Shown: piece after piece, positions 3,788 to 47,271 of the stretch
Layout of the letters: the number at the start of each line of letters is the position of its first letter
Numbering within the stretch: the stretch's first letter is position 1
Assembly (NCBI GenBank): GCA_045633565.1
Contig: JAZQYO010000024.1
Coordinates: 1,395 to 65,394 of the forward strand
DNA from: Clostridia bacterium
GTDB taxonomy: Bacteria; Bacillota; Clostridia; RUG12999
Reading direction: 5' to 3'
DNA: 64,000 nt
The notes under the pieces: generated by a model
Told to the model about the DNA's origin: nothing
Seen by the model: the letters and a program-made list of their open reading frames with translations, nothing else
Databases searched by the model: none
Position numbers and translations under genes: made by a program

Positions 3788-4270
3788 ATGTTCAACCTTG
3801 TTCTTGTCGAACCGGAAATCCCGCAAAACACCGGAAATATTGCACGTACCTGCAGTGTTACCGGTGCAAATCTTCATATTATTGAACCCATGGGATTTAA
3901 AATTGATGACAAAAAGTTAAAACGTGCCGGTCTTGATTACTGGCATCTGCTGAATATAACATACTATAAAAATCTGGACGATTTTTTTGAAAGAAACAGG
4001 GGCGGAAACTTTTATTTCTGCACCACAAAAGCGCCCTGTTGCTATACAGACCACGAGTATAAGGACGGAGATTTCTTCTTTTTCGGCAAAGAAACTGCCG
4101 GGCTTCCCGAAAGTCTTTTGTCAGCTAATCTTGACCGATGTATCCGCATTCCCATGCGGGAAGAAACCCGTTCACTCAATCTTTCAAACTCTGTTGCAAT
4201 CGTTTTGTACGAGGCTCTTCGCCAGACAGAGTTTGCCTCGCTTAATGAAACTTCTGCATATTTTGATTAG
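3788..4270 (+). CDS. trmL: tRNA (cytidine/uridine-2'-O)-methyltransferase TrmL (SpoU family)
   Basis: 160 aa. MFNLVLVEPEIPQNTGNIARTCSVTGANLHIIEP matches the SPOUT/TrmL N-terminus. Confidence 0.85.
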   Translation: MFNLVLVEPEIPQNTGNIARTCSVTGANLHIIEPMGFKIDDKKLKRAGLDYWHLLNITYYKNLDDFFERNRGGNFYFCTTKAPCCYTDHEYKDGDFFFFGKETAGLPESLLSANLDRCIRIPMREETRSLNLSNSVAIVLYEALRQTEFASLNETSAYFD

Positions 4271-4288: not shown

Positions 4289-6223
4289 ATGATAAAGAAT
4301 ATTAAATATCTTGAATATTCTCCCGATATGCCTCAGTCAAAAGAGTTGGCTGAGGCTGCCGGCATTTCTCCGCTTACCGCTGCAGTTGCATTAAACCGTG
4401 GGATAAAATCCAACCAGGAGCTTTCTTCATTTATTAAAAAATCCATCTACTGTCTCCACTCCCCGTATCTTATGAAGGATATGGACAGAGCAGTGGAGAT
4501 TGTTAAAAGTGCCCTCTCCGGTGGTAAAAAAATCACTGTTTACGGGGACTATGACGTAGATGGGATAACTTCTGTGTCGATACTTGTAAAATATCTGTCC
4601 GGACTTGGTGCAGATGTTTCCTTCTACATACCAAGCCGTGAGTCTGAAGGCTATGGATTAAACTGTGAAGCTGTTAAAAAAATCCATAGCATGGGCACAA
4701 ATCTTATAATAACTGTCGACACGGGTATTACTGCGTGTGACGAAGTGGCTCTCGCCAAAGAGCTGGGTATGGAAATTCTTGTAACCGACCATCATCAGTG
4801 CCCTGACATTTTACCCGACTGCGTGGTAATAAACCCGCACAGACCCGATTGTCCCTATCCGTTCAAATCACTTTCGGGCGTTGGCGTTGTGTTTAAACTG
4901 CTCTGTGCCCTTGAAAATGAGATTTCTCTGAAAATTCTTGATATGTTCGGCGATATTATTGCAACAGGCACAATTGCCGATGTGGTGGATTTGGTTGATG
5001 AAAACCGTATTATTGTTGATTTTGGACTTAAAAAACTAATGTCATCTCCAAACAAAGGGCTTGACGCTCTTATTGTGACATCCGGACTTCGCGGACGAAC
5101 GATTGACGCATCTACAATAGGTTTTTCAATCGCTCCACGCATCAACGCTGCCGGAAGAATAGGAAACCCCGAAAAAGCTGTTCAGCTTATATTATCCGAA
5201 AGCCTGTCCGAGTGTATGGAGCTTGCAAAATATCTTGACGAAGAAAACAAGGACCGTCAGCTCCAGGAAGCTGCTATTTTGCGTGATGCCGAGAAGATGG
5301 TTGAAAGTGATGAGTCTTTTAAAGACAAGTCCATTCTTGTTCTTTCAGGATATGGCTGGCATCATGGCATTATAGGTATAGTTGCTTCAAGGATTACTTC
5401 AAAATATTATAAACCGTGTATGCTCATAAGCTGTGACGACGGAATTGGCAAGGGTTCGGGGCGCAGTGTTCCCGGTTTTAACCTTTTTGAAGCAATGAAA
5501 AGCTGTGGCGATGTGTTTGCAAAATACGGCGGTCATGAGCTTGCTGCAGGATTTACTCTGCCACCCGATAATATTGGTGCACTTGATGCCGCACTTAATA
5601 AATATGCTGCAGAAAACATGTCCGATGATGCAAAAACCCCGTCTGTTACTGTAGAATGTGAACTTCCGGTAAAATATATCACCCCGGAAGATATAGATAA
5701 CCTCCGGCTTCTTGAGCCTTTCGGCGTTTCAAATCCCAAGCCATGCTTTATATGCAGTGGCGTCAGGATTTCGGGCAAACGCCTGATGGGTGATAAGGGG
5801 CAGCATATAAAACTAAGCCTCACCAAAGACGGTCAGACTTTTGAAGCGGTAGCTTTCCGCAGACCTGATATAAACGAAAAATTTGCTATAAATGATTATA
5901 TTACGGTTATCGGCACGCTGACAATCAACGAATGGAATAATATTTCCACACCCCAGCTTATAATATCCGATATACTTCCCCCTCCCGAGGAGTTTAAAGA
6001 TGCTCCTGACAGGGACAATTTAAAGGCAGTATACAAATATCTCAAGAGTATGGGCGATAAAGTTTTTGCACAGCTTGATGAAATTTCCGAAGGCGTTTTA
6101 AATGATTTCGGCATCTCCCTTAAAAACAGTGAAATTTTAGATTGTCTTAACTTTTTCAGCCGTACGGGAGTAGCCGGATACACTCTTAAATCTGATGAAA
6201 TTACCATAACTTTTATAAAATAA
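4289..6223 (+). CDS. recJ: single-stranded-DNA-specific exonuclease RecJ
   Basis: 644 aa. DHH motifs (ITVYGDYDVDGITS, DHH) and DHHA1 (GGHELAAG). Confidence 0.95.
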   Translation: MIKNIKYLEYSPDMPQSKELAEAAGISPLTAAVALNRGIKSNQELSSFIKKSIYCLHSPYLMKDMDRAVEIVKSALSGGKKITVYGDYDVDGITSVSILVKYLSGLGADVSFYIPSRESEGYGLNCEAVKKIHSMGTNLIITVDTGITACDEVALAKELGMEILVTDHHQCPDILPDCVVINPHRPDCPYPFKSLSGVGVVFKLLCALENEISLKILDMFGDIIATGTIADVVDLVDENRIIVDFGLKKLMSSPNKGLDALIVTSGLRGRTIDASTIGFSIAPRINAAGRIGNPEKAVQLILSESLSECMELAKYLDEENKDRQLQEAAILRDAEKMVESDESFKDKSILVLSGYGWHHGIIGIVASRITSKYYKPCMLISCDDGIGKGSGRSVPGFNLFEAMKSCGDVFAKYGGHELAAGFTLPPDNIGALDAALNKYAAENMSDDAKTPSVTVECELPVKYITPEDIDNLRLLEPFGVSNPKPCFICSGVRISGKRLMGDKGQHIKLSLTKDGQTFEAVAFRRPDINEKFAINDYITVIGTLTINEWNNISTPQLIISDILPPPEEFKDAPDRDNLKAVYKYLKSMGDKVFAQLDEISEGVLNDFGISLKNSEILDCLNFFSRTGVAGYTLKSDEITITFIK

Positions 6224-46558: not shown

Positions 46559-46652
46559 AACAACACACCCTCCACATCAGAAAAATTTCCTTGTGTAACA
46601 CCCATTATAACCAATTAAACCAATTTGTCAAGATATATTTTAAAAAAATAAA

Positions 46653-46674
46653 AAGACTTGTCAAAACAAGTCTT
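46653..46674 (-). terminator. palindrome AAGACTTGT-CAAA-ACAAGTCTT; reads as an intrinsic terminator on the minus strand (T-tract follows), just upstream of the ABC-exporter promoter
   Basis: 9-bp arms. On the minus strand it is followed by TTTTTATTTTTTT, then TTGACA-16-TATAAT for the exporter gene. Confidence 0.5.
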
Positions 46675-46702
46675 GGCTACATAACAAATGCAAAGTATTT
46701 TA

Positions 46703-46884
46703 GTGAAATATCTCACTCCGTTCGATATGAAATAATTTACTCTGTAAATTGTGAAATAGAAACCTTAAGGTTTCTGTGAAATAAAATAAATCCTTTATCA
46801 CACGCCGCAAGGCGTATTTCATATTGCGAAGCAATATTTCATACACGAAGTGTATTTCACAAATCCTGAAAGGATTTATTTCAT
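46703..46884. repeat. symmetric array of eight RTGAAATA boxes (4 direct and 4 inverted) interleaved with short GNRA/GAA-loop hairpins
   Basis: GTGAAATA or ATGAAATA at 46703, 46727, 46751 and 46776 (24-24-25 nt phasing). TATTTCAT or TATTTCAC at about 46815, 46835, 46853 and 46877. Spacers form mini-hairpins: ATTTAC-TCT-GTAAAT, GAAACC-TTAA-GGTTTC, CGCC-GCAA-GGCG, TTGC-GAA-GCAA, CAC-GAA-GTG, AAATCC-TGAAA-GGATTT. Confidence 0.6.
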
Positions 46885-46900
46885 TGAAAAAACGACTTGT

Positions 46901-46939
46901 CAAAAGATGTGCTTTCTTCTTTGGCTGCCGGACTAGGAT
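46901..46939. repeat. 39-bp direct repeat copy 1: 3' 18 nt of tRNA-Gln plus 21 nt of its downstream terminator (att-like scar)
   Basis: CAAAAGATGTGCTTTCTTCTTTGGCTGCCGGACTAGGAT is identical to 47079..47117. The last 18 nt are the reverse complement of the tRNA-Gln 3' end ATCCTAGTCCGGCAGCCA. Confidence 0.75.
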
Positions 46940-47036
46940 ACCTCCGCTACGCGTCATGCATCCTCGCGGTAAACCGCTCGGACTTCGAAACTAAAAACAG
47001 TCCACAGGACTGTTTTTTTAACGTTTCTCACCCTCT

Positions 47037-47063
47037 CAGGGTTCGAATCCTGCCCGCACCCAC
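47037..47063 (+). pseudogene. orphan tRNA 3' fragment (T-arm plus acceptor 3' strand), plus strand
   Basis: TCAGGGTTCGAATCCTGCCCGCACCCA has a GGTTCGAATCC T-loop and a CCA-like end, but no matching 5' half upstream. A terminator hairpin (46994–47019) sits instead. Confidence 0.35.
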
Positions 47064-47078
47064 AACAAAAAAGCACAT

Positions 47079-47117
47079 CAAAAGATGTGCTTTCTTCTTT
47101 GGCTGCCGGACTAGGAT
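47079..47117. repeat. 39-bp direct repeat copy 2 (genuine tRNA-Gln 3' end plus its terminator half)
   Basis: See copy 1. Includes the terminator AAGCACATC-TTTT-GATGTGCTT for the minus-strand tRNA operon. Confidence 0.75.
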
Positions 47118-47173
47118 TCGAACCCAGACAAACAGAGTCAGAGTCTGTCGTGCTACCCTTACACAATCCGGCA
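47100..47173 (-). tRNA. tRNA-Gln (anticodon CUG)
   Basis: Reverse complement TGCCGGATTGTGTAAGGGTAGCACGACAGACTCTGACTCTGTTTGTCTGGGTTCGAATCCTAGTCCGGCAGCCA. Acceptor U1-A72, anticodon loop CUCUGAC, T-loop GGTTCGAATCC, encoded CCA. Confidence 0.9.
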
Positions 47174-47179
47174 ATATAT

Positions 47180-47271
47180 TGGAGGAGAGGAAGGGATTCG
47201 AACCCTCGATACGCTATTAACGTATACAGCATTTCCAATGCTGCGCCTTCAACCAACTCAACCACCTCTCC
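47180..47271 (-). tRNA. tRNA-Ser (anticodon GGA)
   Basis: Reverse complement GGAGAGGTGGTTGAGTTGGTTGAAGGCGCAGCATTGGAAATGCTGTATACGTTAATAGCGTATCGAGGGTTCGAATCCCTTCCTCTCCTCCA. 7-bp acceptor stem, long variable arm, anticodon loop UUGGAAA. Confidence 0.9.

Follow-up and report, generated by a model that had tools for sequence, protein, structure and literature searches.

A two-armed Gut-1 element behind a tRNA operon in a gut Clostridia genome and its possible recognition by protein as DNA

We analysed an array of short boxes and hairpins at positions 46701-46886 of a 64,000-nucleotide stretch from a Clostridia bacterium (contig JAZQYO010000024.1), hereafter called the window. Its sequence indicates that the array is a dyad of two inverted arms and a solo copy of an interspersed, non-coding module of about 185 bp from gut Clostridia; one arm belongs to Gut-1, a motif catalogued in Rfam as RNA. 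We favour, tentatively and with slightly less than even confidence, the reading that the Gut-1 dyad is a DNA-level element recognised by protein, and that the copy in the window is a solitary relic. The other readings all rank below it: a role as small RNA (sRNA) and a generic repeat resembling repetitive extragenic palindromes (REP) or miniature inverted-repeat transposable elements (MITE) are each unlikely, and arm sites of an integrase are very improbable.

In the favoured reading, the palindromes would extrude as mini-hairpins with C-G-closed GNA or GNNA loops when the DNA is supercoiled or transiently single-stranded, and the extruded hairpins would present the heptamer boxes to an oligomeric protein. 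The likeliest candidate binder is a four-helix-bundle protein encoded next door in complete copies, which would control the abutting promoter, mark the site of module duplication or insertion behind tRNA genes, or both. We favour recognition as DNA because tRNA-linked dyads sit between a terminator and a promoter and because the loops of the two arms show a two-fold polarity. The initial annotation of the window had already proposed a multi-site DNA element bound by protein and possibly a relic. The evidence leans this way, in that complete copies abut a promoter and a conserved small gene, but the protein families that it named do not fit.

The window dyad as a member of the Gut-1 family

The motif RTGAAATA occurs on the plus strand at 46703, 46727, 46751 and 46776, with a spacing of 24, 24 and 25 bp, and on the minus strand at 46815-46822, 46835-46842, 46853-46860 and 46877-46884, with a spacing of 20, 18 and 24 bp. 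The eight boxes of the initial annotation are thus exact in position and spacing. The whole window contains 22 matches to this motif compared with 8.65 +/- 2.9 expected, and eight of the 22 fall within 182 bp. A fifth minus-strand box at 46795-46801 is degenerate (GTGATAA). A perfect hairpin had been described between each pair of boxes; this holds for six of the seven inter-box spacers, and the central GCCGCAAGGC also forms a clean hairpin, but the first spacer of the left arm (46711-46726) pairs poorly. The previously noticed GAA and GCAA loops were confirmed as GAA, GAA, GAA and GCAA on the plus strand of the right arm, and loops proved to be the strongest strand signal. The folding energy of each arm is better than that of its own shuffles, with z-scores from -3.5 to -4.9. 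The parts of the element are as follows.

46811-46886, minus strand: arm 1, the canonical Gut-1 motif (Rfam RF01706, 72 bits, E 1e-14)
Within arm 1, minus strand: boxes ATGAAAT, GTGAAAT, ATGAAAT and ATGAAAT, with the hairpins AAATCCTTTCAGGATTT, ACACTTCGTGT and ATTGCTTCGCAAT between them
46795-46815, minus strand: fourth hairpin ACGCCTTGCGGCGT (46802-46815) followed by the degenerate box GTGATAA, from sequence and fold
46780-46796: central copy of the inverted repeat that brackets arm 1, pairing with 46869-46885 (17 nt, 94% complementary)
46869-46885: outer copy of the same inverted repeat, spanning box 0 and the 5' half of hairpin 1
46701-46787, plus strand: arm 2, an inverted Gut-1-like array with four RTGAAATA boxes (Rfam Gut-1, 36.7 bits)

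Pairing of the central with the outer repeat would be an alternative to hairpin 1. Relatives share the arrangement at 46795-46815, a GC-rich hairpin followed by GTGAG or GTGAT. Read on the minus strand, which is the tRNA-sense strand, arm 2 consists of ATTTCAC boxes with hairpins of 16-18 nt.

With a gathering cut-off of 50 bits for Gut-1, arm 1 scores above and arm 2 below the threshold. Model alignment and folding both recovered the three hairpins of variable sequence separated by GUGAAAU that characterize the family. When 20 loci were re-scanned with the Rfam model, arm 1 always passed (54-82 bits) and lay on the strand of the upstream tRNA or gene, while arm 2 passed in three loci, with 50-53 bits on the opposite strand. 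Gut-1 was first described in 2010 from 43 human-gut metagenome sequences to which neither an organism nor a function was assigned, and its discoverers rated it, from covariation, as certainly RNA and not cis-regulatory (Weinberg et al. 2010, PMC2864571). The published model comprises 77 nt, covers one arm only and carries the family type 'sRNA' (RF01706; PMC2864571). The flanks of the original alignment already show, without comment, forward and then inverted boxes, and one copy directly follows a tRNA and a terminator. No later paper on Gut-1 function was found in the open-access literature, relative to which the inverted second arm, the linkage to terminators and tRNAs, the strand bias of the loops and the neighbouring gene are new. 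The window copy shares with the published motif the gut-associated, uncultivated type of host as well as the score and structure of arm 1. It differs in that the family is not confined to the human gut: the window belongs to a lineage of metagenome-assembled genomes (MAGs) from the ruminant gut.

To find relatives, we used a pattern scan with one genome per species, which gave at least 120 loci; true arrays of boxes and hairpins are present in 73 of the matches listed, and about 150 relatives were compared overall. All relatives stem from MAGs or metagenome contigs, and the number of copies per genome is a minimum estimate. Since the scan patterns demanded exact GTGAAAT boxes, box conservation and the breadth of the family are biased. 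The carriers among the matches listed are nearly all gut MAGs of Clostridia, Oscillospiraceae, Ruminococcaceae, Acutalibacteraceae and Christensenellaceae, with a few Akkermansia, and they come from ruminants, humans, horse and chicken. The initial annotation had reasoned that a pattern occurring only at this site would speak against a functional element; the element turned out to be widespread.

The arrays among the scan matches listed form 79 clusters. Of these, 37 are convergent dyads (23 strict and 14 looser) and none is divergent. In the tRNA-sense direction the conserved order begins with the end of a gene or tRNA, followed by a terminator (T1) with its T run, CAACGAAAT as box 0 and hairpin 1. 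Three repeats of GTGAAAT plus hairpin come next, then GTGAG, X'ATTTC and four ATTTCAC boxes with three hairpins of about 18 nt. A complete module has four to five GTGAAAT boxes with short palindromes in arm 1, and inverted boxes with longer palindromes in arm 2. Two relatives depart from the usual layout. In L140 (3580-3700, minus strand) the usual dyad order is reversed, an array of CATCAT boxes with GNRA or GNA hairpins directly preceding a GTGAAAT array. In L232 (1700-2170) the centre of the dyad is extended to 490 bp and filled by tandem copies of about 21 nt (ttatcgctactttcttctgcg...).

Hairpin evolution, genomic position and the linked gene

Because a MAFFT alignment of whole dyads misaligns arm 1, hairpins and end repeats were counted directly by script; arm 2 is the best-aligned part of the alignment of 31 dyads (A1). 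Stems of at least 4 bp are present in 81.5% of 216 distinct spacers compared with 18% of shuffles, and stems of at least 5 bp in 65% compared with 5%. Between the window copy and its nearest relatives the stems change by double substitution, for example ACAC/GTGT, GCAC/GTGC and GCCC/GGGC. The inter-box palindromes are kept by compensatory change and are under selection. Covariation extends to the 11-nt ends of arm 1 (GAAAT+X and X'+ATTTC), which fall into at least seven sequence classes at a fixed distance of about 90 nt and fit either a closing stem or terminal inverted repeats.

The loops are strongly polarized. On the GTGAAAT strand, 134 of 227 hairpins carry a T..C loop and four a G..A loop; the closing pair is C-G in 192 hairpins, and 131 have triloops. 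On the tRNA-sense strand, T..C loops account for 51 of 66 hairpins in arm 1, with no G..A class among the six commonest listed, and G..A loops for 72 of 110 hairpins in arm 2. Each arm bears c-GNA-g or c-GNNA-g loops on its ATTTCAC strand, with two-fold symmetry. Mini-hairpins of the d(cGNAg) and d(cGNNAg) type are far stabler as DNA than as RNA, bind the single-stranded DNA-binding protein SSB poorly, and are found at primase sites and at promoters of N4 RNA polymerase (PMC13037366). Moreover, about 19 of 44 G..A tetraloops are not GNRA, which is expected of DNA and not of RNA. The loop polarity thus points to a signature of stable DNA mini-hairpins rather than of RNA.

The genomic position of the dyads was analysed in the 79 clusters. 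A tRNA gene lies within 250 nt in 26 of them, representing 14 isotypes, and in 25 of the 26 the element is downstream of the tRNA 3' end. By our rough estimate, this placement is tens of times more frequent than at random. Dyads almost always lie directly downstream of a terminator. T1 starts one base after the tRNA CCA and is bidirectional, with an A run, a ...TTGTC-loop-GACAA... hairpin and a T run; because T1 itself is conserved between loci, we regard it as part of the element. In tRNA-linked copies the T run of the terminator reaches directly to box 0 and a promoter begins at the last box, with the dyad filling the gap between them. Ahead of the dyad these copies have no promoter, and the gap is probably not transcribed. 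One dyad (L204, 1-737) lies at the end of an rRNA operon in the order 23S, 5S, tRNA-Asn, tRNA-Glu, terminator and dyad. Several solo dyads are followed by a decayed motif similar to a tRNA T-arm (GAGTTCGAAWYC ... AAAATATCTTTTT), which stands just past arm 2 in L174, L247, L246, L162 and L269.

Among the genes that flank the arrays, those of the PF05635 family ('23S rRNA intervening sequence protein', TIGR02436 four-helix bundle) were conspicuous. Four MAGs encode close homologues (76-90% identity) some 50 nt past the dyad, and in three of these MAGs the gene is at different tRNA loci. In the reverse direction, we scanned metagenomes with one PF05635 subfamily and considered the 57 loci with at least 330 nt of upstream sequence. 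A Gut-1 array lies no more than 150 nt upstream of the start codon in 48 of the 57, and these arrays follow tRNAs for Asp, Gly, Arg, Tyr, Trp, Pro, Ser, Leu, Ala, Glu and others. Most complete modules have a sigma-70-type promoter (9-11/12) at offset 0 after the last box, consisting of TTGAAA, TTCACA or similar, 17 nt and TATAAT, and a conserved ribosome-binding site GAAAGGCGGTG comes after it. The PF05635 stop codon overlaps the start codon (ATGA) of a variable second gene. Loci L254-L333 (for example L265 from 1839, L254 from 1207 and L268 from 1845) look cassette-like, with a conserved first and a variable second gene; inspected by eye, the second genes encode MazG-like pyrophosphatases, an ASCH-like protein, a P-loop kinase-like protein and unknowns.

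PF05635 proteins resemble Avd, the accessory protein of diversity-generating retroelements (DGRs) (PMC10053308), and the nearest solved relative is 2RLD, with five chains in the entry. A DGR target contains a DNA hairpin with free stem sequence and the loop 5'-GRNA on one strand (PMC3240598). The Gut-1 hairpins likewise combine free stems with a strand-specific loop. They differ in forming arrays of seven to eight hairpins with heptamer linkers, in which triloops dominate, as opposed to the one hairpin of a DGR target. No reverse transcriptase was found among the 25 commonest Pfam families of the neighbouring genes, and template and variable repeats were not searched for.

Weighing of alternative readings

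In a reading at the RNA level, Gut-1 would be a structured sRNA or a 3'-trailer RNA read as the GUGAAAU strand. GAA linkers of 3 nt would connect its hairpins, which would capture or sponge an RNA-binding protein or stabilize 3' ends, and the second arm would be the same RNA in the opposite direction of transcription. We consider this unlikely. The 72-bit match to the covariance model speaks for it, and so do the arrays of the phage contig L098, which are sense-orientated inside a late operon. It is opposed by the missing promoter ahead of the array and by the T run that touches box 0 in the main family; in the window, three terminator-like hairpins separate the tRNA promoter from the dyad. 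UNC and UNNC loops with C-G closure have no known rationale in RNA stability, whereas their complement is the classic loop of DNA mini-hairpins, and the mirror-image loop polarity of the two arms is not explicable by one RNA. The initial annotation had named a structured non-coding RNA as the alternative to a DNA site; the curated database takes this side, but the comparative evidence leans towards a DNA element.

Several results nevertheless weigh against recognition at the DNA level. Rfam and the discoverers call Gut-1 certainly RNA, the latter on the basis of covariation (PMC2864571). With RNA parameters, the GUGAAAU strand folds better than its complement (-27.1 vs -21.9 kcal/mol), and only on this strand can the stems of the Rfam model be extended by A-U and U.G pairs. 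Nearest-neighbour DNA folding energies (-17.2 vs -17.3) do not separate the strands, and neither do wobble counts in the stems (G.T vs A.C, 15 vs 23), although the latter null result also counts against an sRNA. Arm orientation follows the upstream tRNA in 25 of 26 cases, and single arms follow the upstream gene as well, facing away from a co-oriented gene in 33 cases vs 16. Some single arms lie 17-35 nt past a stop codon with no terminator between, and hence are probably transcribed. Arm 1 and arm 2 differ systematically, which pure two-fold symmetry of DNA leaves unexplained. Finally, of the roughly 45 dyads that the genome sample contains, only about 6 are accompanied by the PF05635 gene, so most copies function, if at all, without the gene in cis.

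Four further ideas were dropped. Kissing between loops of arm 1 and arm 2 fails for want of complementarity between the loops of one element, as seen in the window copy and L190. The two arms did not pair past the boxes; in L135 one arm reads GTGAAAT and the other ATATCAT. The boxes also lacked a -10 partner that would make them promoter hexamers of an sRNA. Mimicry of a CRISPR (clustered regularly interspaced short palindromic repeats) repeat, suggested by the type I-C tail GUGGAUUGAAAU, was abandoned because all hairpin sequences differ.

We then considered the dyad as a generic intergenic repeat that spreads selfishly or by recombination into safe sites behind terminators and acts at most as a back-up bidirectional terminator, insulator or supercoil sink, with no dedicated partner protein. 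Much of the copy dynamics agrees with such a repeat as well as with the favoured reading. Placement is intergenic and close to terminators, and many copies are located at true contig ends. The MAG JAZTZP01 carries five arrays with near-identical arms on four contigs. L165 and L196 each have two near-identical terminator-plus-dyad units, as direct pairs flanking genes, and L240 has four arms. In human-gut samples, L269 and L277 (2442-3248) contain 3.5 tandem dyads of two alternating types (A-B-A-B); this tandem is absent from the same-species contig L268, the same-species contigs being 98-100% identical up to that point. The orthologous site in L130, a related genome, is without the element. 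In the ATTTCAC direction, AUUU after each hairpin may resemble a weak terminator, and the outer ends carry outward TTGAAA hexamers, as do the ends of many insertion sequences and MITEs.

Other results do not suit a generic repeat, which we also hold to be an unlikely explanation. The hairpins differ within every array and have undergone compensatory change over long divergence, which points to structure being selected and not to recent copying. A link this tight to one subfamily of PF05635, and a boundary exactly at the tRNA CCA, would be unexpected. The terminal inverted repeats of a MITE are present, as the whole element is a dyad out to TTTTCAA...TTGAAAA with covarying arm 1 ends, and so are multiple copies and presence/absence variation. 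However, the ends of L165a/b, of L196a/b and of the window copy show no consistent target-site duplication. The 25 commonest Pfam families of the 109 + 93 neighbouring open reading frames (ORFs) include neither a Y1 (Y1_Tnp) nor any other transposase; whole genomes were not searched.

The dyads share with REP sequences, bacterial interspersed mosaic elements (BIMEs) and REP doublets forming hairpins (REPINs) of Proteobacteria the multicopy intergenic palindromes, a short conserved single-stranded tag per hairpin, a position behind genes or terminators, inverted groups and a presumed action as single-stranded DNA. REPs, however, have one hairpin sequence per genome, a GTAG tag and a REP-associated tyrosine transposase (RAYT), whereas every Gut-1 hairpin is different and the tag is a heptamer. 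Near-identical palindromes with a tetranucleotide tag were not found, as the hairpins differ both within and between arrays.

The attC sites of integrons, such as the Vibrio cholerae repeats, are also imperfect dyads (60-180 bp) conserved in structure and not in sequence; they function as folded DNA of one strand, as Gut-1 might, flank gene cassettes and can be tandem. Their inverted 7-nt core sites, GTTRRRY/RYYYAAC, match GTGAAAT/ATTTCAC at six of seven positions. In contrast to Gut-1, attC forms one long hairpin from both halves, has the triplet GTT/AAC and is recombined by the IntI integrase. The Gut-1 boxes GTGAAAT/ATTTCAC have GTG/CAC in place of this triplet, and their arms share only the boxes, each spacer forming its own palindrome, so that no pairing of one half with the other was found. 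As to linked integrases and cassette arrays, two of 31 dyads have an integrase nearby; L165 and L196 contain genes between direct dyad pairs, L269 has the tandem, and L188 forms a cycle. This last contig (JAZSRT010000110.1, 3884 nt, a k141 contig) has an exact terminal overlap of 141 nt and closes to an assembly cycle of 3743 bp, which holds three genes and a single dyad with a long centre. The cycle represents either a molecule that is circular or a unit with the same dyad on both sides.

As a third alternative, the boxes would be arm-type sites of a tyrosine integrase, together with Xis, and the dyad the arm region of a tRNA-integrated island. Arm sites of lambda attP are short repeats in both orientations over about 200 bp, and the dyad resembles them in this respect; in the window and at other loci it also adjoins the 3' ends of tRNAs and displaced fragments of such ends. 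This similarity had led the initial annotation to suggest integrase binding. We regard it as very improbable, since only two integrases occur among the 93 ORFs that lie up to 5 kb downstream of 31 dyads (near two of the 31), and neither integrases nor transposases are enriched among the 109 + 93 neighbouring ORFs. Homologous modules follow at least 14 tRNA isotypes, which is not the behaviour of tRNA-specific arm sites. In addition, the two arms remain joined, with no separation into attL and attR, and covarying hairpins between the sites are not required by an integrase and are left unexplained. The suggestion of replication or partition iterons likewise found no footing: no Rep or Par gene is present in the window or among the commonest Pfam families of the relatives' neighbours, and BLAST of the window element gave no plasmid match.

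The boxes may also resemble the omega repressor heptads of Firmicute plasmids (5'-WATCACW-3') and box A of P1 parS (ATTTCAC). As in Gut-1, units of 7 bp around a TCAC core are arrayed there in direct and inverted orientation ahead of promoters, and the GUGAUAU variant of Gut-1 corresponds to ATATCAC. The heptads are contiguous duplex sites for proteins of the ribbon-helix-helix or helix-turn-helix type, whereas the Gut-1 boxes are 11-18 nt apart with hairpins between them and have no such protein linked.

BLAST against phages matched the window element to one unverified faecal scaffold, MT835590. This only match in the phage database, and closest relative of the element by BLAST, carries the dyad followed by a PF05635 gene. 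The pattern scan of viral sequences gave mostly chance and tandem-repeat matches, with real arrays only in L011, L028, L050 and L098. In L098, two single GTGATAT arrays in gene sense (3804-3890 and 4303-4377) flank a small Prp-like peptidase gene, which sits between the genes for the phage portal and an internal virion protein. An extension after the last hairpin (GTTTCGGGACCTGCGGTCGGCATTATA) is common to L098 and the bacterial copy L188.

A more far-reaching version of DNA-level recognition, which we regard as quite improbable, is that Gut-1 dyads serve gut Clostridia as sites of recombination and expression in an unrecognised gene-cassette system that is anchored exactly at the tRNA CCA. An Avd-like pentamer of four-helix bundles would read arrays of extruded DNA mini-hairpins, cassettes made up of the PF05635 gene and a variable one would be acquired, deleted and copied between dyads, and the window would be an empty landing pad. 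Such a system would be integron-like in function and mechanistically unrelated, with no linked integrase.

Surroundings of the window copy and implications

The features around the dyad in the window, from the tRNA operon to the exporter gene, are the following.

47335-47307, minus strand: promoter of the tRNA operon
47100-47271, minus strand: genes for tRNA-Gln and tRNA-Ser
47093-47070, minus strand: terminator of the tRNA operon
46922-46939, minus strand: displaced tRNA-Gln 3' end (...CCA), from the exact 40-nt repeat; the T1-plus-dyad module starts directly after it
46887-46915, minus strand: chimeric remnant of the upstream terminator T1, from direct repeats D1 and D3
46680-46702, minus strand: putative decayed remnant of the module promoter (TAAAAT, 17-nt spacer, TAG), with the -10 remnant TAGCCA extending into 46674-46679
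46643-46679, minus strand: TAGCCA and then an intrinsic terminator (AAGACTTGTTTTGACAAGTCTT plus T run; hairpin 46674-46653), which closes the unit; from a terminator scan
46631-46604, minus strand: sigma-70 promoter (12/12) of the ATP-binding cassette (ABC) exporter gene

The initial annotation had placed the element downstream of the terminator of a tRNA operon, beside a tRNA-Gln scar and upstream of the promoter of an ABC exporter, and this setting was correct. The scar is marked by an exact 40-nt repeat (46900-46939 = 47078-47117) of the tRNA-Gln 3' end and half of the terminator. Its 138-bp filler (46940-47077) contains an inverted tRNA 3' fragment (47039-47064, plus strand) and a bidirectional terminator (about 46994-47020). 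The 3' half of the chimeric T1 (GACAAGTCG plus T run) is that of the element, and its 5' half (AAAGCACATC) is a copy of the tRNA-Gln terminator. An intact version of T1 (AGACTTGTCAGTTGACAAGTCTTTTTTT) stands in L253, ahead of the closest-related dyad. The 5' half thus appears to have been swapped for half of the tRNA-Gln terminator when the 40-nt repeat arose.

By comparison with the promoters of at least 11 distinct complete modules, the segment 46680-46702 is probably homologous to their TTGAAA-17 nt-TATAAT promoter. The terminator within 46643-46679 has the stem arm ACAAGTC in common with the chimeric T1, and the region looks like the beginning of a second, truncated module. The same junction of tagCCA(G) plus terminator also occurs ahead of secondary dyads in L196 (about 4975) and L269 (about 2395).

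No gene for a mobile-element or DNA-binding partner was found near the dyad, the neighbours being ordinary chromosomal genes; this bears out the earlier remark that no adjacent gene encodes an obvious cognate protein. There is also no PF05635 gene in the 64-kb window. With only a decayed promoter and no PF05635 gene, the window dyad is a solo, gene-less copy. In all likelihood it is an inert relic; any remaining role would be limited to binding in trans and to spacing the tRNA operon structurally from the promoter of the ABC exporter.

The window matches the ruminant-gut MAG GCA_017537325.1, and relatives of its exporter are labelled Ruminococcaceae. In L130 the exporter is 84% identical to that of the window, and tRNA-Ser, tRNA-Gln and the scar are kept at about 88% identity, which makes the scar old. 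L130 is without the dyad, and homology stops just past the displaced CCA, exactly where T1 and the dyad start in the window. Synteny around the exporter showed the dyad only in contigs of the same strain; contigs with 80-84% identity have other neighbours, except for the tRNA pair in L130. In L130, a PF05635 gene (5061-5426) lies right after the ABC exporter gene with no Gut-1 array alongside, and it matches the dyad-linked group more weakly (profile E 5e-39).

For the window itself the message for annotation is modest: a gene-less relic with a tRNA operon on one side and an exporter gene on the other. For the family, the window places a copy of a motif that has been in Rfam since 2010 without function, host or context into an assembled genome. 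Comparison of its relatives provides four testable handles, namely the 185-bp dyad, its position at terminators and tRNAs, the mirror-image loop polarity and the candidate partner gene. If the DNA-level reading is true, a motif catalogued as RNA would need to be reclassified, and a widespread orphan protein family would gain a function.

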